From: Octopus sinensis
Taxonomy: Eukaryota
Direction: 5' to 3'
Length of the DNA: 64,000 nt
NCBI RefSeq assembly: GCF_006345805.1
Contig: NC_043004.1
Coordinates: 48,236,001 to 48,300,000, forward strand
The notes beneath the pieces were generated by a model. It did no database searches, was not told the DNA's origin, and worked only from the letters and a program-made list of their open reading frames with translations. How positions within the stretch are numbered: position 1 is the first letter of the stretch; each line of letters opens with the position of its first letter. The translations under genes were made by a program, and so were the position numbers. Shown here one piece after another: positions 1,196 through 24,605 of the stretch.

Positions 1196-2465
1196 TTCGG
1201 CCATTAAGTATGAAATCTGTAGAAAAGAAACAAAGTTTGCTAATGTTTTATAAATACAAAGAATAGTTTTATTCATCAAAAGTATGCACCCATATTGTCA
1301 ATACACTTTGCCATTTCAGCGGTAGCTTGTCCAACCCGGAACTGTAAAAGCCTAGCAATCTAGAGTCAATAAAATCTTGGAATGCCTGTTTTACAGCATC
1401 GTCGGAATTAAATATTTTTCCTGTCAAAAACTTATCCAAAATTCTGGAAGACGTAGTAGTCAGTGGGGGCAAGATCATGTGAGTATGGTGGGTGATGGAA
1501 AACTTGCAACTCCAACTCCTGTAGTTTCGCCACAGTTATGTTTGCTATGTGTGGTCTGGTGTTGTCCTGCAATAAAATAGAAGTGCATCTGATGACTAAT
1601 CTTTTTTTCTGCATCATTAAGTCCAGTTGGCTGCAGTATATTTCGGCCGTGATTGATGAGCCAGGTTTAATGAAATCATAATGGATCACACCTGCGCCAG
1701 ACCACCAAACACACACCATCACCTTCTTTTGATGAATTTTGCTTTTTGGACTGTTTTGGTGGCTCGTCTTTGTCCAACCGTTGTGCTGAACATTTACGGT
1801 TGTTGTGATGGATCCATTTCTCATCACATGTTACAATTCGATTCAAAAGTGATTCATTTTTGTGAGGAGAAAGTATCATAATGCAGACTTCGAAACGTTG
1901 CTGTTTCTGATTTTCATTGAGTTCATGTGGAACCCACTTATCCGACTTTTTCATTTTACCGATTCAAACTAGGTGAGTCAATATTGTTTGCTTGCTCACA
2001 CCAAACAACAACGATAGTTCACTGGCAATTTGAGATGGATCTGACTCGACGGTGTCTTTCAGTCGTCATTATCCACCTTTGTTTCTGGTCGATCGCGTTA
2101 CTCATTTGTGAGGTCAAAGTTACCAGAACGAAATTTTGCAAACCAAATTGATAGTGTCTGCTGTGTAATGATATTAGAATGAAATACTCCATTAATATTC
2201 CGAGCTGTCTGTGATGCTGTATTTCCAAGAAAGAACTCATATTTTAAAACTGTTCGAATTTCCGACTTATCCATCTCTAAACAAAAAAAAGCAAAAAACA
2301 ATTTATAAATACTTTATAAAGCGCAAAAGGAGTTATAATAAAGAAATAGATGTGTCAGCTTTCTAACGAAAATTAAAGATTGTCAAAATATAATAATGGC
2401 GCAAAATGAGCAGCTATCAAAGTTTACCATATACTTTACAACAAATTTCATACTTGACGACCTAA
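1196..2465 (-). mobile_element. Degenerate full-length mariner (DD34D) DNA transposon
   Basis: Frameshifted ORF pieces carry WVPHEL, IVTCDEKW, LLQDNTRPH and HPPYSHDLAPTDY. Imperfect TIRs: ttcggccattaagtatgaaatctgt versus ttaggtcgtcaagtatgaaatttgt (reverse complement of right end). Flanked by TA; about 1.27 kb. Confidence 0.93.
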
Positions 2466-4699: not shown

Positions 4700-7600
4700 T
4701 TCTATTTCAGCTTTCCTGTTAATAATCTTTCATTTTCTTAATCTTTCATTTTCTATTTCAGCTTCGTAACATCCTCTCTTTCTTTTCTTTCTCTCTCTGT
4801 CTCTTCACTTCTCTCTATCACACCATCTTTCTTCTCTCAGCCGTTCAATCTTTCCTTGTCTCTTCACTTCTCCACTTCTCTCTGTCACACCATCTTTCCT
4901 CTCTCAGCCTCTCAATTTTTCTAAATATATAGTCGCGAACTTTCCTCTCTTACTCTCTCCTTATCTTCTCTCAGCTCTCAATCTCTCAAAATACATAGAC
5001 ACTTTCTTCCTCTATTTCTTCTCTACCCTGTATCACACTATTAAATTTTAAATATAATTAGATAGATAAATAAATAAAATATCCAAAATGTCCAGAACCT
5101 GGAGATGTAACGAATTGGCGTTGTTCCTGAGAGCCTGGCAATACACCGACGGAGATAATCCGAAGAACATAATTACAGCTGCGCTGAAGAGCAGTGGATA
5201 TAAAAGGACAATAGCTCAGATAGAACGAAAGAAGCAGGAGTTTATACGCTCCTATGCACTCATAAAGTCTCACATTGGCACGCTTGATGCCATCGTTGAC
5301 AGCGAACAAATTAAAGATGGCAAGGATGGAGACGCGGGTGCTGATGAAAGAAGTCACCCCCACTTGGTAGACACCCAGGAAGAAGATTCAAGTGAGAAAC
5401 CTGCCCGGGAAGTAAACCCAAGTGCAAGTGCTCCTACCAGCACCAAAAGCCAATGAGATGAAAGAGCCAAAAAAGAAATAAAAGGAGGAAAAACTAAAAG
5501 AAAAACAAAAGATGAAACAGCCAAAGAAGGAAAAACTAAAACTCAAACAAAACCAAAAAATGAAACAGCCAAGGATAGAAGCAATCCTGACTATCCATGT
5601 ACCAAAAAGGATGGAAACAGACAGCGCACACGGGTATGTAGGTTCTACCTGAGAGGTGTCTGCTGGCATGGAGAGGAAGGTGCAGGCTGCCGTTTTGCAC
5701 ATCGGGGACCCTGCCGCAGAAACACGAAACAGGTGAGAAACCAACTACCAAAAGGAAAACGGATGGGCCACACACCACTTGCCCCAAAACGGAGGTACGC
5801 CAACGTGTTATTGAAAGGGCAGCTTCTGAACAAGATTGTACAGCAGCTAACCTGGCTACATCAAACTCAAACTCGCAGATGGGACACACTAATTGTACAT
5901 ATAAGGCAACTTGGTGTAGTTATATGTGCTACATATCGCCCTCCAGATGCCCCAAGCCATGTAGGCAAGTTTGAAGACTGCCTTATAAAAATAGAAGTTC
6001 TAGTCACATTAGAACAACACATAAGTGTACTTCTTATGGGAGACTTCAATCTACCCAATGTCAGATGGCCCGATGGCCTTTCTCTCCCAGGAATGACACG
6101 ATGTGAACGAGGACAGGCGAGGTCCCTCCTGAACCTCATCAACACTCTGTGCATGGAGCAAGTAATACTCCAACCAACCAGGGCAGGTAACATACTGGAT
6201 CTCTGCTTCACAAATAATATGGATCTTATCCATAATGTGAAAGTGACACCGACACAACTCTCGGATCACAACATGGTAGAGCTGACCATGTACGGGCCAA
6301 AGGAAAGCATGGATATGCAGCCTACAAGAAACTCTCAGAATTTTTCCAGCTTGAACTTCCATAAGGCAAACTGGAAACAAATTGAGAAAGAGATCCTCAA
6401 ACAAAACTGGCCTGAATGTCTATCCTCGCCAGACATCGACATGAAACATCAACAATTCGTGTCTGTAATGCAAGCCATATGCTACAAATGTGTCCCAGAG
6501 ATAAAGGCCACTGTACACAAGAGCAAAATCCCCAGAGAGAGGAAAATTCTAATGAGACGGCGTACAAAAGTTTCAAATCGCATAAACAAACAAACTGAAA
6601 GCAGTGAAAAGTCCCGCCTGAAAATAAAACTGTTGGAAATTGAAAAATGTTTGCAACTCTCCCATGAAAAAGAAAGAGCAGACAAAGAAGCCTGGGCTAT
6701 AGACAACATAAAATCTGACCCCAAAGCTTTCTACAGGTATGCCAAAGAAACAGCTACGGTGCACTGTAGGATAGGGCCACTCCTTTAAAAGGATGGCACA
6801 CTCACAGGAAATCCAATGAGGGTAAGTGAAATACTAAATGAGCAATTCAAGAGTATTTTCACTCCACCCCTTGGGCATTTTCAAGTTAGCAATCCAACTA
6901 ACTTCTTTACCACAGCAGATATAAAATCGGAGGCAGCAATGATTGATTACATCAATATAAAGGAAGACGATGTAATAAAAGCTATTGATGAAATAAAAAC
7001 AAACTCAGCTACTGGCCCAGATGGATTCCCAGCAATCCTTCTAAAAGTATGTAAGAGAGTCCTAGCAAGATCCCTGCAGTTCCTCTTTCAGAGCTTCCTT
7101 ACAACTGGCAAACTTCCAAGAAAACTGAAGGAAGGTAAAATATGCCCTATTCATAAAGGAGGTAGCAGAGCGGAGGCCAAGAACTACAGACCTATCTCTC
7201 TGACCTCACACATCAGCAAGGTCATGGAACAAAGAGTCAGAAGGAAACTAATCACCTTTCTTGAAGAAAATGACTTGCTGCCTGACACCCAACATGGTTT
7301 CCGACCAGGAAGAAGCTGCTTAACTCAGCTCCTACAACACTATGACTGGGTGCTGAAACGACTGCTCAACCACTCAAATGTGGAAGTCATATATCTCGAC
7401 TTTACAAAGGCCTTTGATAAAGTCGATCATGGAATGCTATGTCACAAACTGCGTGATCTTGGCATAGTTGGAAAATTGGGAGAGTGGCTTCATGACTTTC
7501 TGAATGATAGAAGTCAGGTGGTAGTAGCCAATGGGACCACTTCCACTAACACGCAAATAGTGAGCGGTGTTCCGCGGGGCACTGTTTTGGAACCACTACT

Positions 7601-8375
7601 GTTCATAATGACCCTCTCAGACATGCCCTCAGCCACGCAGAGAGCCACGATCACAAGTTATGCAGATGATACAAAAGTTTCACAGGCAATACAGAACCCT
7701 GAAGACACTAAGCACCTGCAATGTGAGCTGGACAAAATATACAAGTGGACTGAAAAGAATAGCATGCAGTTCAATGCTGAAAAGTTTCAAGCTCTATGCT
7801 ATCAGCACGATAACAGCGATCCAACGAAGCTACACGAAGAAGATAGCCTCTGTGCAGCATATAAGCTATTGAGAAAGACTCAAGAGATTGAGACTCTATT
7901 CCTTAGAGCGTAGGCGAGAAAGATATGCCATAATATACATCTGGAAGATCCTAGAAGAACTTGTCCCAAACTTTGGCATCGAGAGTTACACAAATGCCAG
8001 AACTGGGCGCCACTGCATAGTGCCAAGGACTCCAAATTTGCCATCAAGATGTAGGACAAGATATTGTGATAGCCTGGGCTTCCGAGGCCCACAGCTCTTC
8101 AATATCCTCCCGAAGAACCTAAGAGACCTGCATAGGGTGGATGCAGATGTCTTTAAAATGAAACTGGATCTCTTCTTGTCAGGTATCCCAGATGAACCAA
8201 CTTCACGGCAGGAGGTGCAGATGAGGGCAGCTGCATCGAACTCTCTCATGTACCAAATGACAATTGCTAAAAAGCATTCGTGAAGTAAAATCATGTAGCA
8301 ACACCAAATGGCGGTGCCCCAGCATGGCCACAGCTTGTGAGCTGAAACTAGATAAATAAAAAAATAAAAAAATAA
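4700..8375 (+). mobile_element. CR1/L2-group LINE, internally deleted and inactive (ORF1 part with CCCH finger, APE endonuclease, RT)
   Basis: One frame from 5088 to ~7810 with two nonsense codons (5454, 6786). APE motifs YRPP, MGDFNLP, LDLCFT, SDH. RT motifs NYRPISL, QHGFR, YLDFTKAFD, GVPRG, YADD. C-terminal LYSLERRRERY. A-rich tail at ~8350-8375. The 5' boundary (CT-rich UTR-like repeats) is approximate. Confidence 0.92.
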
Positions 8376-9845: not shown

Positions 9846-10198
9846 TTTCGTCTGCCATTACGTTCTGAGTTCAAATTCCGCCGAGGTCCACTTTGCCTTT
9901 CATCGTTTCGGGTTCGATAAATTAAGTACCAGTTACGCACTGGGGTCGATGTAATCGACTTAATCCCTTTGTCTGTCCTTGTTTGTCCCCTCTGTGTTTA
10001 GCCCCTTGTGGTCAATAAAGAGATAGGTATTTACATTCCGTGTTCAAATTCCGCCGAGGTCGACTTTGCCTTTCATCCTTTCGGGGTCGATAAATTAAGT
10101 ACCAGTTACGCACTGGGGTCGATGTAATCGACTTAATCCCTTTGTCTGTCCTTGTTTGTCCCCTCTGTGTTTAGACCCTTATGGGTAGTAAAGAAATA
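9846..10198 (+). mobile_element. SINE family B, head-truncated tandem dimer
   Basis: Two copies of gttcaaattccgccgagg...gcctttcatcctttcggggtcgataaattaagtaccag plus tail. The core resembles the Meta/MESC SINE domain (from memory, not searched). Confidence 0.85.
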
Positions 10199-12215: not shown

Positions 12216-12835
12216 AATCTTGTACCGATTATGCTTGTATTTTAATTAATTCGCGTTAATGTACCTCATCTTGTAAAGTTGCAAAATTTTTTTCGGTTGC
12301 CATCTGGGATCATTTTAGTAACAAATCAAACAGGTAAGTTGCATTAAGAATTTCAATTTTAGTGTTTATCAATATAATGTTATTGCTTTTACACCTGTTG
12401 ATTAAATTTACCTGCCCATAAAAGTCAAATTTACTCAGTAAGATCAGCTAAAATTACATAACTATAAACCAGTAGTATTTAAAGCACCCACTGACAAAAT
12501 TTCAAATCTGTGAAAAATTTATAAAGTTATAAGCAAATATTGTGGACACCCCTCTTAAACCTGAATAATTCAAAACCAACTGAACCCGTGAAAACTTTAC
12601 GGAAAACATAAAAAATATAAGCATCTGTAAATTATGGGCTGGTGCCATGAGAAATGTTTCTATATTGTGATACAGAATATAGAAAGAAGTGTAAAACCAA
12701 TGACTATATAATCCAGCCAAAATATTTCAGTTACGCAAACGTAAACAGAATTACTATTTAGCCTTAAAATACATCGTATATATTCAAAGAACCTTCTTGG
12801 TTTAGTGGTACGGAACGTTCATCTGGCATTCTATT

Positions 12836-13122
12836 ATTCTTTTACTTACTTCAGCCTTTTGCTCGAAGAAATCGACCCTTGGACTTATTCCTTGTAAGTC
12901 TGGTGCTTATTTTATCAGCCCCCTCCTCCTCTGTCGAACAGCTAAGTTACGGAGACGCAAACGAATCGACATCGGTTGTGAAGTGATGGTGGCGGGAGGA
13001 CAAACACAGACACAAACACACACATAAATATATACATGTGTGTGTATGACGGGTTTCTTTCAGTTTCCGTCTATGAAATCCACTCACGAGATTTGGTCGC
13101 CCCGAGGCTATAGTAGAAACAC
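12836..13122 (-). mobile_element. SINE family A, partial diverged copy
   Basis: Reverse-complement match to the family A body and tail. Confidence 0.8.
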
Positions 13123-13614
13123 CCTTTAAATTATAGAGTTGAATTTCATATAGCCGCCTGTTGGCAACTTTTCTCCCCCACCCATTTTGTAGGAGTTATT
13201 ACCCATTTTTCTGGGCTCTTTTCACAGCTATACCCCATTCGAAATTTGCATTAGTTTTAGTATGAAAAAAAAGGAAGAGAGGTGGAACTTGTTTGTAGTT
13301 TGAAGAGGAAACGTTAAACGTGCCAGAAAAAAACATGGTATTTCCTCCCAACTATAAGACATGAAGAACTATAAAAGAAGGCGAATAAGTACAGGAGGTG
13401 GGGGGAAGAAGAGAGAACTAACAGTCGATCGTTCTAGAACTCCCAGAATGAGAACATAAACACCCGAAAGACTTTCCCTCTATTCATTACTAAATGTCTT
13501 TCTCTCTTCTTCATTAATAAAAGTAAAGAAGCGAGAAAAGATTTGTCGTATTTCAGTCTAATTGTCACTGTCTCTGTTTCTATTGCTTCACTCCTTTTCT
13601 TTACGGTTAAGAGA

Positions 13615-13912
13615 GTGAAGATGCGTGGCCCAGTGGTTAGGGATATTTGGCCCACGATCATAAAGTCATGAATACGATGCTCTGTGACGTGCTGTGTACT
13701 CTACTTCCCCTTGCTGCAGTCCACTGAGATGGCAAAAATGAGTTGTAGCTGTAATTCAAAGAGGCCAGCCTTGTCACTTTTGTGTGAGGTTGGATCTTCC
13801 TGAGAACTACGTTATGGCATGCCTGTCTGTGGAGTACTCAGCCACTTGCGCGTTAATTTTACGAGCAGACTGTTCTGTTGATCATATAAAGAAGATCCTC
13901 GTCGTCGTTAGC
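13615..13912 (+). mobile_element. SINE family C, diverged copy; a fragment also at ~14200-14345
   Basis: tRNA-like head (tggcccagtggttaggg) and the body gagaactacgtta...gtggagtactcagccac shared with 37543-37930. Confidence 0.7.
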
Positions 13913-14816
13913 CATTTTTCAAAATAGTGAAAGCACGTGTTTAGTATAAGCAGTGAAGGCTGAGACGAAATAATTGCTATTCCGTCGTATAGTGACTTTG
14001 CCCTGGATTCACGCTCAGTTTGCTAACAACAGCCTGCGCATCGGTGTTTACCCGAGAGCTTAGCCTCCGGATCTGTGAAACCCACAAATCCCGCTGTTAG
14101 GACCGGATTAACACCCATAGTGACCCTAACGACTAAAAAGATTTCCCTGTTCCTATATAGGATCTTTTTTCGTTTTCTTCCAACCACTTGAAGGTTTACC
14201 TTGCTCCAGTCCACTCAGCTGACCAAAATGAGTTGTAGCTCTAATTCAAAGGAGCCAGCCTCATATTATGTGAGAGGCTTAATCTCTCTGAGAACTACGT
14301 TAATCGTATGCATGTCTGTGGAGTACTCAGCCACGTGCAAGTTTGTGAGTTCATTTTATCTTCGTGTGGTAGTGAAAAGTGGAAGTAACATCCAATATGT
14401 GTTGTAATTATTTGTCTTTGATTTAACAATGTATCTATGTATCAACTTTTCTTTCGATATATGTCTCTCTCACTTTCTCCCTCACTTCCTCTGTGTCCCT
14501 CACCTCTCCCGCCTTTAATTTAACAATGTGTGTATGTATCTATGTGTCTACTTTTCTTTCGATTTATGTATCTACTTTTCTTTTCATCTATGTATCTACT
14601 ATGTATCTACTCTGAAATACTGATAAACATAATGAAGGATATTTGACTGGTACGTCATGCATGTTGGGTAGCCACATAGAGACTCCTTCGTAGGTTCGTG
14701 ATGTACAATGAAAGAACAATGTATAAACAGTCATAATAAAAAGATTCACTTATAGGCCTCATTTTGGTTTTCATGAAAACGATTCGTGGTAACTTAAGAA
14801 AATATCTTAATACTAT

Positions 14817-16745
14817 TTAAATAAACCAAATAATACATTGTAAAATGTATAGGTATAAAATTGTCTTGAGGTGATTCGACGAACTGAGAGCCTCTACATG
14901 ACATGTTCCACAGCAATTTTGTTTCATTGTATCGTCATAATATTTACAAAGTTTTCTTCGGCATCCTTCACGCTTGTCCCCGTATTTGCAGCTCTCTACT
15001 TTCCTGGCGAGCAAAGCACAAGTCCAGCAACACATAGAATAGAAATAATCATTATAACAATAATAGTTTCTTCCGAATGTAGCATAATTACACGTAATAT
15101 TAAGTTCATCAATTACATCGGGATGTTTATCCCCCAACCAACAATCCATAGGTATTTTTGGTGGGTCTCCCTGCGTTGTACAGTGCCCTTTGATGCACCA
15201 CATACCCTTGCCACACGTTGTACCTTCTAGGGGCATCATTCCAATACACATGCCTTTCTGGTAACACATCATATGGATACAAAATCTCTCAGTTCTTTGG
15301 AAATTCTCATTTTCGCAATAGTATATATCCGATTCGTGAAAAAATCTGTTATAGCATTGTTGACTCGCGCTGAGCCATTGTCCAGGTTTGATCATGGTAT
15401 TTAGATGGTACTCTGGCACTATGCTTCTTCGCCACAAACAAGCGTACCTCTTGTCGTTGCGACCTTTTTTGACGATACCTGATACGTAGTCTCTCGAACA
15501 CTGTGAAAATGAAAACAGGTTTAAGCTTAAATCCGTATTCTGGAATAATTCAAGGAGTGGGGACATTACGTATCTGTCTTCGGGGGGACACTGGGTGTCA
15601 AGCGTATCAAACGGTATTCCAACCGAGCGTCCAATTAATTGGACTGCAGCAAAAGCTGTTCTCAAACTTAGCCTTTCAGAAAGGATGCTTATAGAATCAC
15701 TTGAACAAATTCTGTTTGCCTTACCGAAACCAAGTTCCTCAACATATGGAATTATGTCGTGTAATGTTATAAATACTATATGGTCCATACCGCTAGTATA
15801 TTCTTCGCTTGAATGAACCAACCAATTTTTCAAGCGCATCCAAATGTCTTTTGGATCCTTTGATGCCCAATCAGCAAGAATCAAGTTGTGCGCGTGTTTC
15901 GTTTTAGTAATAACCATGTAATTACTTATTATATCTAAAGAAAAGTCTTCAGTAGTCAGAGAATGGAATACATATTGTATCAATGAAATCAGAGTACTAT
16001 AATATGAGTGTATTAATTCGTCCGTTCTTTCTTCTACGTTTTCAACATAATGTGGTATTACAAGCATGAAGTGCTCATATATTGTATAGTCTAGTATAAT
16101 TGATAGTTCAATATTCATCCCAGCGAAACCGCGGCTTTTCGCCGTTTGTCGCTTTTTCCTAAATTGTGAATATGGAGGTTTTAAATGAGCTGTATTATTC
16201 TCTGAAATACGATCACACGCATTCTGTGATGCTGCTCCTTGCAGAGGGTGTATTGTATGCCGGTGTCCATATTTACCTTGGAATCTTCCAACGTCGAGTT
16301 TTAAAAAATCAGGATAAAGAATGAAATGGAAACCATTGTAGCAAAACATTCCAGTTAAAAGATATTGTTTGAAAGTTTCGTTTCGTGTTTGCTCTTTTTT
16401 ACATTGAACTGTAAAATAGCCATTTTCGTTGACGTATATACCAGACGTATTAACACATGTAACGTTATGTTGGACGAGATTCTTCTGAAAACCTTTATAA
16501 TTTAAGATATACGTATCAAACGATTCATATGTTCTTGAAGATTTTCTCAGTTTTAAAATTATTTCATGTTTATTTGCTTGAACCTTAAAATAAAGTGCAT
16601 CTTTATTCTGGGTCCTGTTGGTATGCGGGATTTTGATATTATATATCCAGGCAGTAAAGGGTTTTGAGCCTAGACTTCCAGCATTTGCTTCACAAAAGTA
16701 ACAATAAAGAATGCTTAAAAGTAGATAGGTAAGAAATCGCCCCAT
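14817..16745 (-). CDS. Intronless ADAMTS/MIG-17-like M12B pseudo-metalloprotease (642 aa), predicted secreted and possibly GPI-anchored
   Basis: Uninterrupted 1929-bp ORF. Signal peptide MGRFLTYLLLSILYCYFCEANA; prodomain; furin site RKKR; M12B start IELSIILDYTIY; degenerate zinc motif QLIGRSVGIPFD; Met-turn YVMSP; FSQCS; ADAMTS-type Cys-rich region (PGQWLSASQQC...EGTTCGKGMWCIKGHC); two CCxTC-ending modules; hydrophobic C-terminus. Confidence 0.9.
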   Translation of the reverse strand: MGRFLTYLLLSILYCYFCEANAGSLGSKPFTAWIYNIKIPHTNRTQNKDALYFKVQANKHEIILKLRKSSRTYESFDTYILNYKGFQKNLVQHNVTCVNTSGIYVNENGYFTVQCKKEQTRNETFKQYLLTGMFCYNGFHFILYPDFLKLDVGRFQGKYGHRHTIHPLQGAASQNACDRISENNTAHLKPPYSQFRKKRQTAKSRGFAGMNIELSIILDYTIYEHFMLVIPHYVENVEERTDELIHSYYSTLISLIQYVFHSLTTEDFSLDIISNYMVITKTKHAHNLILADWASKDPKDIWMRLKNWLVHSSEEYTSGMDHIVFITLHDIIPYVEELGFGKANRICSSDSISILSERLSLRTAFAAVQLIGRSVGIPFDTLDTQCPPEDRYVMSPLLELFQNTDLSLNLFSFSQCSRDYVSGIVKKGRNDKRYACLWRRSIVPEYHLNTMIKPGQWLSASQQCYNRFFHESDIYYCENENFQRTERFCIHMMCYQKGMCIGMMPLEGTTCGKGMWCIKGHCTTQGDPPKIPMDCWLGDKHPDVIDELNITCNYATFGRNYYCYNDYFYSMCCWTCALLARKVESCKYGDKREGCRRKLCKYYDDTMKQNCCGTCHVEALSSSNHLKTILYLYILQCIIWFI

Positions 16746-16829
16746 AAGAAAAAACTTTTACAAACTCAGCAAATACGCAGTCGATATCACGAACGCTTAG
16801 AATATTCCCATTTAGCACAGTTTCTCTTA

Positions 16830-16837
16830 TGACGTCA
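16830..16837. promoter_or_regulatory. Perfect CRE palindrome TGACGTCA, ~85 bp upstream of the ADAMTS-like ATG
   Basis: aTGACGTCAt seen directly; function is inferred from position. Confidence 0.5.
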
Positions 16838-16909
16838 TTTAACCCGACCTATAATCGTTCCGCTTTTCTCTTCTGCAGAAAAAAAAAACACATACATATA
16901 CTTGCACAA

Positions 16910-16920
16910 GCGCATGCGCA
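16910..16920. promoter_or_regulatory. NRF1-type motif GCGCATGCGCA, ~165 bp upstream of the ADAMTS-like ATG
   Basis: Matches the NRF1 consensus GCGCATGCGC in an AT-rich context. Confidence 0.45.
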
Positions 16921-16999
16921 TGCCCCAACAATAAATATTGCCCAGCTAAATATAATACAGACCCACCAAATTTGGAAAAATCTTGTTTTTCTATACAGT

Positions 17000-17367: not shown

Positions 17368-17407
<40 letters not shown>

Positions 17408-17416
17408 TATATATAT

Positions 17417-18745
<1,329 letters not shown>

Positions 18746-19622: not shown

Positions 19623-22040
19623 CATAAAATCCACAAACCCAACAACCCTGGCCGCCCATTGTCTCCGCCTGTAACTGCCCCACGGAGCTCATCTCAAAAT
19701 ACCTCGACCGTGTCCTTGCCCCCCTAGTGGCGTCTCTTCCCTCCCACATCCATGACACCAACCATGCTCTCCGGCTTTTCAACTCTTTCTCCTTTCCTCC
19801 CGGCTCCTCCAAAATCCTTTTTACAATGGACATCCAGAGCCTCTATACCGTCATCTCTCACCATGAAGGACTGCGGGCACTTCAACACTTTCTCGACCTC
19901 CGCCCCAACCCCGAACACGACACCTCCACACTCATTCGTCTGGCCGAACTTGTCCTTTCTCTTAACTGCTTCTCGTTCGCGGGCGAGTTCTACCAACAGT
20001 TCTCGGGAGTGGCCATGGGAACGCAAATGGGCCCCAACTATGCGAACCTGTTCGTTGGCTATGCTGAGGCCCAAATATTCTCAAGTTTCACTGGTCCCGC
20101 TCCCGAACTATACGGTCGTTACATTGACGACATTATCGGTGCCACCTCACTCTCCCGTGAACATCTAGATTCCTTCCTCTCTTTCATTCAATCCTTCCAT
20201 CCTGCCCTCCACTTCACCTCCACTATCTCCAACACCTCTGTCTCTTTCCTCGACATTTCGGTCAGCATTCATCACTCCACTCTTACCACCTCCATTCACT
20301 ACAAACACACAGACTCACACTCATACCTAAACTTCTCTTCCTCCCACCCCAAACACACCAAGCTTTCCATCCCCTATTCCCAATTCCTCCGTCTATGTAG
20401 GCTCTGTAGTGACGACCATGACTTTGAGACTCAGTCTCAACTCATGGCTCTCCACTTCATCCTACGTGGATACCCCCTCACCACTATCCACACCGCCCTT
20501 GCCAGAGCACGTTCCTTAGACCGTGCATCTGCTCTCTCTCCTCCCCCCCCCGAACCCGCCTTGCAGTCTCCCGCCTCCCTTATCCCCTCACTTTCCACCC
20601 CACCACCCTACCTCTCCAACGCACCATTCTTCGAGTTTTCCGGCATCTCCAGTCCGACCCGTCCACTTCACACCTCTTCCCTAACCTCCCCCTCCCCTCC
20701 TTCAAACGAGCCCATAATCTACGAGACCTCTTGGTCCACAGCTTCTTCCCTGGCCCTACCTCCCAACCTGGCTCGTTCCCCTGCTCCCGCCCACGTTTCC
20801 ACACTTGCCCTTACCTCTCCAACACCACTCTCCTCACTGGCACCCATCATTGACCCTATTGCATCATCGACTCCTTCACCTGCACCTCCAGCAATATCAT
20901 CTATTGCATCTCCTGCTCTCTTTGCCATTCCCTGTACATCGGACAAACGGGACGCCGCTTGGCTAACCGGTTCGCGGAACACCTCCGAGACATCCGCCTT
21001 GCCAATGACACACCGGTCTCACGCCATTTCCGCTCCACCGGTCACTCCCTGCAACACCTGTCTGTGTTCGGATTGTCCTTGCACAGAGGCCATCCGGATT
21101 CCCGCTTGCGCCGTGAACAGGGATTAATCTTCTCTCTTCGCTCTTTTACGCCATTTGGTCTCAACTCTCCCCCACCTTTTCATCTAACCTCCCCCCAACT
21201 CCTACTTCACTTCAGTCCTTCATCTTTTCACCCCTACTCTCTTTCCCTCCTCTTCCCTTCTTTCCCTTCTTCCCTGTTCTTCTTTCTTCTTTTTTCTTCC
21301 CTCTTCCCCTTCTCTCTTTCTCTCTGCTCCCTCACTCCCCTTCTCTCCCCCTCCCCTCCTCTCCTCTCCCTCTCCCATCCTTTCCCCTCCCCATTCTCCT
21401 TCCTTCTCCTCTCCCTCCTCCTCTCCTCCCCTCATCTCCTCTCTCCCCTCCCCTCCTCCTCTCCTCTCTCTTCTCTCCCCCTCTCACTCTCCCCACAACC
21501 CCCACTCTATCCCAACCCCCAGCCGAACCCACACCCCACATGGGATTTCCCCACTCTCGCCCCCCACCTCCCCACAACATCACACCACACTACACTACAC
21601 CATACGACATTACACATCACATCATACATACACACGTCCAGACCACACGCACGTCCAGACCACCAGCCCTCTTTCACACGCACATACATACTCTCTTATA
21701 CACACACGCACCTTCATGTTGGGGCGAGATCACTTGACCCTGTTATCTCCCATACTATCCCTCTAGCATCTAACGTCTGAACTCTGACGTCTGACCTCTG
21801 ATCTCTGACTTCTGCCTGAAATCAGAACGCCATGTTGGACCGTTAGCTCCTACACGCATTTTTTTCTCTCCTTGTTTCTCTCCTTGTTTCTTCTCTGTGT
21901 ATCTTTCTGTCGAAGAGCGTAGGCTCGAAACGTAAAAGACTTGTTTTATTTATATTCCTGAGCGCCATACTAATGCAATTGTTTGTTTGTACTCCACCTG
22001 CCTTCGTCTTTTGTTTATTTTCGTAAACCTTCCCGTTATA
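19623..22040 (+). mobile_element. Penelope-like retroelement (Neptune-like), 5'-truncated and disabled: RT, GIY-YIG and 3' pLTR
   Basis: KIHKPNNPGRP, TMDIQSLYT, GVAMGTQMGPNYAN, YGRYIDD and FLDI motifs. After a frameshift at the poly-C (~20545) comes a Cys-rich linker with an in-frame TGA, then NIIYCISCSLCHSLYIGQTGRRLANRFAEH...PFGLN. A hammerhead-like motif lies in the 3' region. Confidence 0.93.
21902..21939 (+). ncRNA. Minimal hammerhead-like motif in the PLE pLTR (variant core CUGUCGA)
   Basis: Stem I UCUUU/AAAGA, stem II GAGC-GUAG-GCUC, GAAA, palindromic stem III ACGU, triplet GUA. Confidence 0.65.
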
Positions 22041-23479: not shown

Positions 23480-24375
23480 ATGGCCGCACTAAGTGTGTTG
23501 GGTTGCTCGCAACACCGCGTCCTTCTCGTCCGAATATTTCTTTTTCTAGCGGTTCTTCATTACACAAGTTCAGCCTTAACAGCTGATGAATATTCAATCA
23601 TTTCAAGCCCGTCCAGTTCCATATCTGTGATTTCATTCAAGAGCTTGACTCTAAGAAGAGTGCGTCGGAGCATCAATGATACGGATACCACACCATCTTC
23701 AAGCACCGTTCAGTCGTTACTTAGTAATACCTCATCATCACAAACGACCAAATCTATAAGCAGTTCATAACCACTTCTTACAATAAAGGACACAACAGTT
23801 AAATTGGCTCCAACAACAGCAACAATATCTACTGCTAAATCTGTTCCTATTTCTACAGCAACCTCAAGTTTATCTCTATCAACCGCAACAACTTTGCCTT
23901 CAACAGCTGTAACAAATGATAAAGTCACTGATACTTCTACAAAACAGTCGACTCATTCTGTTACGGCCAAGTCCACCTCCGCCCCCCCCCCCATACTCCA
24001 ACTACTACTAATACACCAACTACAACCACTCCAGGATTAACTACACCTTTGATGAAAGTTGTTGAGGATAATCACAGATACTATAAGTCGTTAATCATTC
24101 AAGAGGAACTCAATAAGCACTGGATAAACATGGATGATGGGCCATTCAGTAACCACAGAGTTTTATCTAACAATCACAGAGTGGCTGCTCCAGTGAAAAT
24201 AAATTTCAAATTTAAATTTTTTGGACATACTGTAGTGAATTTAACCATAGCTACTGGAGGTTTTCTTTACATGAGTCCATTTTTACACAAATGGCTAACA
24301 GCAACACAGTACATTGCACCTCTCATGGCAAACTTTGATACCTCCATTGGTAAAGGTTCAGAAATAAGATTTAAG
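23480..24375 (+). pseudogene. PLXDC2: Intronless, disabled plexin-domain-containing protein copy (PLXDC/TEM7 family), N-terminal half only
   Basis: Signal peptide, RRVRR site and S/T-rich region, then EDNHRYY...LSNNHRVAA...FKFFGH...TIATGGFLY...LTATQYIAPLMANFD, matching PLXDC1/2. In-frame TAA at 23768, frameshift at the C11 run (~23985), and homology lost at ~24375. The symbol denotes the family, not proven orthology. Confidence 0.85.
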
Positions 24376-24605
24376 AGATTAGGAATTATGCACCTTATTT
24401 ACATTTGTCGGATATTTTTGCCCTCATCTTCTTTGTTGTTAACACAACGTTTCGGCTGTGGACAGTTTGTTGGTTTCATCCTCTCTTTTCTTCATAATGG
24501 GAGTGGATAGTATGTTTCTTTGGTAGTAGTTGCTTAATAAACACACACACTCGCACGCACATACACACAGACATACACACACAACACACACACACATACA
24601 CACAC

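Follow-up and report, generated by a model that had tools for sequence, protein, structure and literature searches.

A single-exon open reading frame of 642 codons occupies the minus strand of an Octopus sinensis locus that we analysed as a stretch of 64,000 nucleotides (the window; positions are counted from its first base). This frame, which encodes the protein P0001, is the longest in the 64-kb window, and its sole stop is the terminal one; in 300 shuffles of the bases the longest stop-free frame reached 170 codons. The three other window ORFs exceeding 300 aa are all pieces of LINE endonuclease/reverse transcriptase (RT), in agreement with the initial annotation, which had described one clean long frame among decayed elements. 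The parts of the gene and the other features of the window are listed in Table 1.

The processed pseudogene at 23480-24510 holds a signal peptide, a Ser/Thr-rich region and a NIDO-like half in one piece, its reading frame broken by a single in-frame stop and, at a C-run, by a frameshift. Its parent matches in three exons (G000:C8:27.717-27.726 Mb, 78-88% identity). Sequence matching gave only a weak NIDO lead for the copy, which we take to be derived from a plexin-domain-containing (PLXDC/TEM7-like) gene. Nesting of the P0001 gene in the intron of a host gene was considered and rejected, this neighbour being a broken processed copy and no host.

Table 1. Features of the window, with strand and basis of assignment
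Feature	Position	Strand	Basis
Dead M12B/MIG-17-like protein P0001, 642 aa	14817..16745	(-)	single-exon ORF; unspliced contig cover
Predicted signal peptide, aa 1-22	16680..16745	(-)	hydropathy 1.9-2.2 near N-end; helix 2-21 in model
Prodomain, aa 23-199	16149..16679	(-)	model residues 71-444 align with ADAM17 pro+catalytic chains, Z ~20
RKKR furin-type site, aa 196-199	16149..16160	(-)	also in P0002 and P0003
Pseudo-catalytic reprolysin-fold domain, aa 210-438	15432..16118	(-)	model and fold comparison
Dead zinc motif QLIGRSVGIPFD, aa 369-380	15606..15641	(-)	alignment to ADAMTS-5 and active paralogue
Met-turn M394	15564..15566	(-)	invariant in 44-row family alignment
ADAMTS cysteine-rich (disintegrin-like) domain PF17771, aa 454-523	15177..15386	(-)	Pfam
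Six-Cys module 1 (C535-C576), family-typical	15018..15143	(-)	PLAC-like by pattern only
Six-Cys module 2 (C586-C615)	14901..14990	(-)	Cys pattern; no Pfam/PDB sequence match
GPI-signal-like tail, aa 621-642: SSS, 5-residue spacer, 14 hydrophobic residues	14820..14885	(-)	inspection and hydropathy
Likely 5' leader	16746..16862	(-)	X3 and X6 contigs end at 16862; X1 aligned to 16826
Likely 3' UTR, up to ~1.1 kb	13730..14816	(-)	contiguous with ORF in contig X3
Mariner-type transposase piece	1432..1824	(-)	
Decayed LINE-like element (endonuclease/RT)	5763..7913	(+)	
Decayed LINE-like element (endonuclease/RT)	19826..21127	(+)	
Tandem array, unit 173 bases	9858..10198		
Tandem array, unit 196 bases	17388..18004		
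Tandem array, unit 183 bases	52883..53614		
Processed pseudogene	23480..24510	(+)	
Nine TTAGGG units, interstitial	41086..41137		

Four of 24 listed sequencing runs were mapped onto window positions 12500-16995. Runs X3 and X6 come from one study and were read as RNA from the behaviour of their assemblies, X1 is a guessed RNA run, and the three assemblies, at 51-68 M letters, are small beside a genome of 2.7 Gb. No run containing the gene is catalogued as RNA. A single contig spans 13730-16862 in X3, covering the ORF with no joint among the joints listed; single contigs likewise span 14880-16862 in X6 and, as aligned, 14632-16826 in X1. Contig depth is 86-95 over the ORF, against 9-11 for exact flanking pieces in X3. 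No cover lies above 16862 in the mapped runs, a common end outside the reach of the DNA control X7, which covers 14809-16085 only and leaves 16086-16995 bare. The RNA-like assemblies thus cover the ORF unspliced, and transcription of the gene without splicing is likely. A spliced transcript replacing the hydrophobic C-terminus, which the initial annotation had named as evidence against its reading, does not show in the X3 and X1 contigs, which continue through the tail and the stop codon. In 17 of the 24 runs, assigned by species label and with RNA type guessed, next to none of the gene's words occur, a result that we do not count as restricted expression.

The X6 contig ends exactly at 14880, in codon 622, where the tail begins, and does not cover 14600-14749; a filter, an allele branch or an alternative 3' end are candidate causes. 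Two very short upstream ORFs lie in the likely 5' leader (16811-16838, minus strand), one of them beginning at a TGACGTCA palindrome (16830-16837). We rejected this CRE as a hint of a testis promoter: the window has two copies with 0.75 expected, and 16 of 100 shuffles gave as many. It also lies inside the X3 and X6 contigs, and a GAC repeat ends in the copy that precedes P0005.

Domain structure and the altered zinc site

All three zinc histidines and the catalytic glutamate are replaced in P0001 (H>Q369, E>L370, H>R373 and H>F379), at exactly the coordinates first assigned to this loss. The segment aligns to HE.GH..G..HD of ADAMTS-5 and of an active paralogue, P0004, and in place of HExxHxxGxxH reads QLIGRSVGIPF in P0001 and its orthologue P0002 and QLIGRSIGIPF in the orthologue P0003. 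The scaffold residues described earlier as kept are indeed so: in a 44-row family alignment D380, C386 and M394 are invariant and G376 is nearly so.

An AlphaFold2 model of P0001 built from 116 sequences (pLDDT 79, pTM 0.72) retains the reprolysin fold when set against ADAMTS structures, the comparison that the initial annotation had proposed. It matches the catalytic and Cys-rich domains of ADAMTS4, 5 and 1 with Z 24 and an rmsd of ~3 A (for ADAMTS4, Z 24.4 and 2.9 A over 268 aligned residues), and the ADAM22 chain of the LGI1 complex with Z 21.4. The top PDB sequence match is ADAMTS-5 (E 3e-6). Prodomain, furin site and Cys-rich domain are all present (Table 1), the last of these, ADAMTS_CR_2, being the sole Pfam domain found in P0001 (49.4 bits against a cut-off of 27.3; E 6e-13). 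Pfam Reprolysin gave no match in P0001 at E<=1; the PF01421 cut-off is passed by P0004 and by another dead relative, P0008. TSP_1 and spacer likewise gave no Pfam match at E<=1, and only ~95 residues of Cys modules, plus the tail, lie downstream of PF17771. Judged from its sequence, P0001 is shown to be catalytically dead, with the zinc ligands lost and the predicted reprolysin fold kept. By its predicted architecture it is an M12B-fold homologue of the MIG-17 type and not an active protease, an ADAMTS or an ADAM; it is not classed as an ADAMTS because it lacks TSP1.

The two Cys modules had been labelled PLAC/ShK-like, and this name is carried by the cysteine pattern only. Neither module has a PLAC or ShK match in Pfam, both families are absent among the matches listed for 44 relatives (25 of 28 Pfam families), and a PDB sequence search with the Cys modules returned no match. 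A lone Cys module modelled from its single sequence reached pLDDT 43, and matches in the whole-model fold searches were taken up by the protease domain.

GPI-anchored proteins have a signal peptide, small omega residues, a short spacer and a terminal hydrophobic run, with no cytosolic tail. P0001 fits this layout by inspection and hydropathy: the SSS at 621-623 is followed by five polar or mixed residues and then by 14 hydrophobic ones up to the stop (the last 15 residues average 2.1 in hydropathy), without a cytosolic tail. The C-terminus is therefore present as first described, and its anchor-like character is kept in the orthologues, but its designation as a GPI signal is by pattern only.

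Relatives and origin of the gene

A search for orthologues and paralogues, suggested at the outset, yielded both. The orthologues are P0002 (O. bimaculoides LOC106874587, 84%) and P0003 (72%), and the O. sinensis genome (G000) contains two further relatives, each in one open frame. P0004 is an active, single-exon, tail-less MIG-17-like protease with an intact HELGHSLGVLHD (L002 1201-3189, plus strand; G000:C12269), whose orthologues are P0006 (O. bimaculoides "metalloprotease mig-17", 94%) and P0007 (Argonauta hians, 73%). P0005 is a second dead paralogue of 666 aa with a hydrophobic C-terminal extension (O. sinensis LOC115227129; L003 300-2297, minus strand; G000:C1761); no close orthologue of it was found among the best 150 of 1748 profile matches and in one further search. 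P0004 has an unusually long N-terminal hydrophobic stretch (a possible signal anchor), and a possible 5'-UTR splice donor lies ~610 bases upstream of P0005.

The family was collected by a profile search, from which the best 150 of 1748 matches were taken (E down to 1e-120); the 15 of 20 looked-up representatives that carry species names are all molluscs. We built one tree with FastTree from 147 of 154 proteins (those with at least 300 core residues; 7 dropped) and another with IQ-TREE from 28 proteins with the zinc-motif columns removed. Both contain a clade of ten proteins (100/100 in IQ-TREE), three active and seven dead. The dead members (P0001-P0003, P0005, P0008, P0010 and P0011) form one branch (98/96), the sister of which comprises the active P0004, P0006 and P0007. 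The branches of the clade are long and three rows are of odd composition, and attraction may affect the grouping. Since the seven dead proteins sit on one branch, one inactivation would have preceded at least one duplication, and a single inactivation common to this seven-protein clade is, on the tree, shown. Across path lengths of 2.5-3 changes per column the dead clade has persisted, and it has also undergone duplication. P0008, P0010 and P0011 are probably, by their place in the tree only, from more distant cephalopods; P0008 and P0010 list contigs of equal length (116,574) and are perhaps a tandem pair.

An altered zinc motif has arisen independently in several lineages outside the clade, in 14 of the 137 rows there (among the best 150 of 1748 matches); 15 rows had been flagged, of which P0153 falsely. 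Nine of the family form a separate dead clade (P0064, P0066, P0068, P0076, P0102, P0111, P0112, P0124 and P0144), with named members from scallop and freshwater mussel and no terminal hydrophobic tail; this is a predicted independent pseudoprotease lineage in bivalves.

Each of the seven dead members of the octopus clade carries a C-terminal extension of hydrophobic character (hydropathy 1.5-2.3 over 13 residues), which is weaker in P0003, P0010 and P0011 and is followed in P0005 by another 15-19 residues, whereas the three active members end soon after the last Cys. Outside the clade, among the best 150 of 1748 profile matches, 25 of 123 active relatives and none of the 14 dead ones have such a tail. 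The predicted tail, present in those 25 active relatives, is not an invention of the P0001 gene; the putative combination of dead motif and tail is special to the octopus clade among the relatives compared, and each alone is not. Death and tail fall on one branch and therefore count as a single event, not as repeated evidence.

The gene had also been called retro-derived. P0001 is intronless, as that view would have it, but the coding parts of P0004 and P0005 are single-exon too, and searches of G000, which used three protein queries and two Pfam families, found no intron-bearing parent (two of them with a stricter first pass, at which a split, distant parent could escape detection); the retro-derived label is, as it was put, unsupported. 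The same searches gave four short PF17771 and three short PF01421 exon-sized matches. Intron loss, if any, came before inactivation, because the active sister is likewise single-exon.

Selection and domain rates

In P0002 and P0003 alike the zinc motif is dead, the furin-type RKKR site is present and none of the 31 Cys is missing; the tail, too, is retained at 21 of 22 positions. An orthologue with an intact HEXXH would have spoken against the initial annotation; none occurs among the two found, both of which are dead. Invariant across P0001-P0003 are 21 of the 22 tail residues and 23 of the 27 residues of the dead-site helix region (aa 355-381), compared with 67% of the whole protein; P0003 has an Asn within the hydrophobic run of the tail. 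No stop, frameshift or Cys loss separates the three orthologues. Neutral evolution was simulated in 2000 runs to each distance: at that of P0002, 4 runs remained without a stop and 0.2% lost no Cys (mean loss 5.4); at that of P0003, no run remained without a stop. Given that both orthologues retain the dead motif, every one of the 31 Cys and 21 of the 22 tail residues, the gene is, on these comparisons, maintained by selection and no pseudogene.

The near-fixed, terminal tail bears on whether P0001 stays at the cell surface or is released. It could be a secreted or shed non-catalytic part of mucus, egg coat, spermatophore or salivary secretion, matrix-binding or adhesive, with the tail holding it until release. 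Passages of PMC7333891 describe a limpet protein, P-vulgata_8, as an "ADAM family mig-17" reprolysin without HEXXH occurring only in adhesive mucus; M12B genes are discussed as octopod posterior salivary gland genes in part of PMC7656900; and MIG-17 itself is secreted, according to an excerpt of PMC4856095. The conservation of the P0001 tail, far above that of the protein as a whole, and its terminal position argue against release, as does the Ser/Pro/Thr repeat tail that the limpet protein has instead (PMC7333891, same passages), and we consider the secreted form unlikely.

Domain rates were compared for the same species pair (O. sinensis and O. bimaculoides) in the dead P0001/P0002 and the active P0004/P0006. 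Over the whole protein there are 103 differences in 639 positions for the dead pair, compared with 41 in 662 for the active pair. The difference is concentrated in the (pseudo-)catalytic domain (49/229, or 21%, against 5/227, or 2%; Fisher p 4e-11), with smaller counts in the Cys-rich domain (11/71 against 2/70) and the Cys modules (16/84 against 4/85). The prodomain differs at 13/177 (7%) in the dead and 23/198 (12%) in the active protein, and between P0001 and P0002 it is the slowest large domain and the pseudo-catalytic domain the fastest. The usual rate pattern is, in this alignment, inverted in the dead protein, with the mature domain fast and the prodomain slow.

These rates weigh on a second alternative, in which P0001 would act not as a recognition receptor but as a regulator of its active sister or of other surface proteins, whether as a substrate or inhibitor decoy or as a trafficking partner. 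The same genome does encode an active tail-less sister, P0004, the helix around the dead site is conserved (23/27), and mouse ADAM1/2 act indirectly, on sperm migration and not on fusion, in the portion of PMC4848645 consulted. The catalytic domain of P0004, however, is identical to that of O. bimaculoides at 222 of 227 positions; the sister being nearly unchanged, a protein that partners it would hardly be expected to differ at 21%. We regard a regulatory role as quite unlikely.

The X1 contig shows 164 differences from the window along 2.2 kb; within 16125-16143 it is 9 bases shorter, at the site of a three-residue gap in P0002. If it encodes P0002, an assumption that makes dN/dS a bound and not a measurement, the non-synonymous changes number 114 or more and the synonymous ones no more than 50; dN/dS is then 0.62 or higher for the whole protein, 0.81 or higher for the pseudo-catalytic domain and ~0.3 for the prodomain. 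On the same assumption the pseudo-catalytic value would be 1.0-1.4 if 10-20 of the differences fall in UTRs. The initial annotation had held that a dN/dS near 1, together with no expression, would tell against it, and the bound comes close to such a dN/dS; it still does not indicate neutral decay, because no stop has appeared and 0 of 31 Cys are lost. On this bound the pseudo-catalytic domain would evolve near the neutral rate with its Cys and dead-site helix fixed, and other sites must then change at or above that rate. Such fast sites fit partner-driven selection, and relaxed surfaces could presumably produce them likewise.

A duplicate under relaxed selection, constrained only in its folding and with little function, would be expected to give such high bounds (conditional on X1 encoding P0002), and the 103 amino acid differences would need ~153 nucleotide changes if neutral, where at most 164 are seen. 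Against this reading stand the absence of stops, frameshifts and Cys losses in the three orthologues, the low prodomain dN/dS under the same assumption, the nearly fixed tail, and the age and duplication of the dead clade; we consider it very unlikely.

Possible role and comparison with known systems

We think it fairly probable that P0001 is a dead MIG-17-like protein, predicted to be furin-processed and GPI-tethered, whose fast-changing pseudo-catalytic domain makes it a receptor for binding or recognition. It would enter the secretory pathway by its predicted signal peptide, furin-type cleavage at RKKR199 would remove the prodomain, and GPI transfer would take place near S621-S623. Residues 200-621, including the non-catalytic reprolysin domain, would then be displayed at the surface, and this domain would bind a partner that may itself also be fast-evolving. 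The earlier reading of a cell-surface pseudoprotease stands in that the protein is dead, maintained and keeps its tail; anchoring is assigned by pattern only. ADAM22 and sperm ADAM2/3 serve as models for the receptor because they have a dead reprolysin fold and ADAM22 binds its ligand by it: excerpts of PMC5906670 describe ADAM22 as inactive and LGI1 as bound through its metalloprotease-like domain.

As to where such a receptor would act, gamete or reproductive-tract recognition is the most likely setting, which we put forward tentatively and only because of analogy, fast evolution and intronlessness. Conceivable but doubtful is the wider proposal that cephalopods independently made a fertilin-like system, in which a dead, GPI-tethered MIG-17-type clade on sperm or female tract, with a positively selected pseudo-active-site domain, would mediate species-specific gamete or sperm-storage recognition. 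Among papers on octopus reproduction, the main texts of PMC12691039, PMC6341066 and PMC8976471 contain no entries of the family, nor does the supplement of PMC11202624, which has no gene-level DEG table.

To our knowledge, few gamete-recognition molecules of cephalopods have been identified. P0001 is a concrete candidate for an octopus recognition protein, with the active, slow sister P0004 as a built-in control; should it prove a mucus or regulatory protein, it would still be a tidy case of pseudoenzyme evolution. Full-text searches, with subscription journals mostly outside their coverage, found no paper on the gene or its clade, and a search by orthologue accession found none. PMC7656900, in the part that refers to M12B genes of octopods as genes of the salivary gland, does not name the P0001 gene.

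Closest in layout is MIG-17 of C. elegans, described in the section of PMC4856095 available to us as signal-pro-metalloprotease-disintegrin-like-small Cys module without TSP1, the domain order of P0001 and of MIG-17-like M12B proteins. MIG-17 is secreted and needs catalysis, whereas P0001 has lost the zinc ligands and has an anchor-like tail; MIG-17 also has a C-terminal PLAC, while the two Cys modules of P0001 are not recognised as such. The molluscan family of M12B, ADAMTS_CR_2 and Cys modules (bivalves, limpets) shares its domain series with the octopus clade, which differs in being long-branched, short (two modules) and single-exon. P-vulgata_8, a molluscan MIG-17-like reprolysin of 638 aa, is in the passages of PMC7333891 secreted with a Ser/Pro/Thr repeat C-end, and its comparison with P0001 is by description only. 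For aa 207-524, vertebrate ADAMTS1/4/5/13 match best in both sequence and structure (~20% identity), but P0001 lacks TSP1 and spacer and is not active.

Dead reprolysin-fold pseudoproteases are already known from vertebrate ADAMs and from the one limpet mucus protein. The sperm proteins ADAM1/2 lose the protease domain upon maturation, and the role of ADAM1/2/3 is largely indirect (PMC4848645, in the same portion). The non-catalytic ADAMs (ADAM22/23/11; sperm ADAM2/3) have a dead reprolysin fold at the cell surface, the location predicted for P0001. They possess a true disintegrin domain and EGF, transmembrane and cytosolic parts, whereas P0001 has an ADAMTS-type Cys-rich domain and ends in a hydrophobic run; its lineage and the non-catalytic ADAMs are of independent origin.
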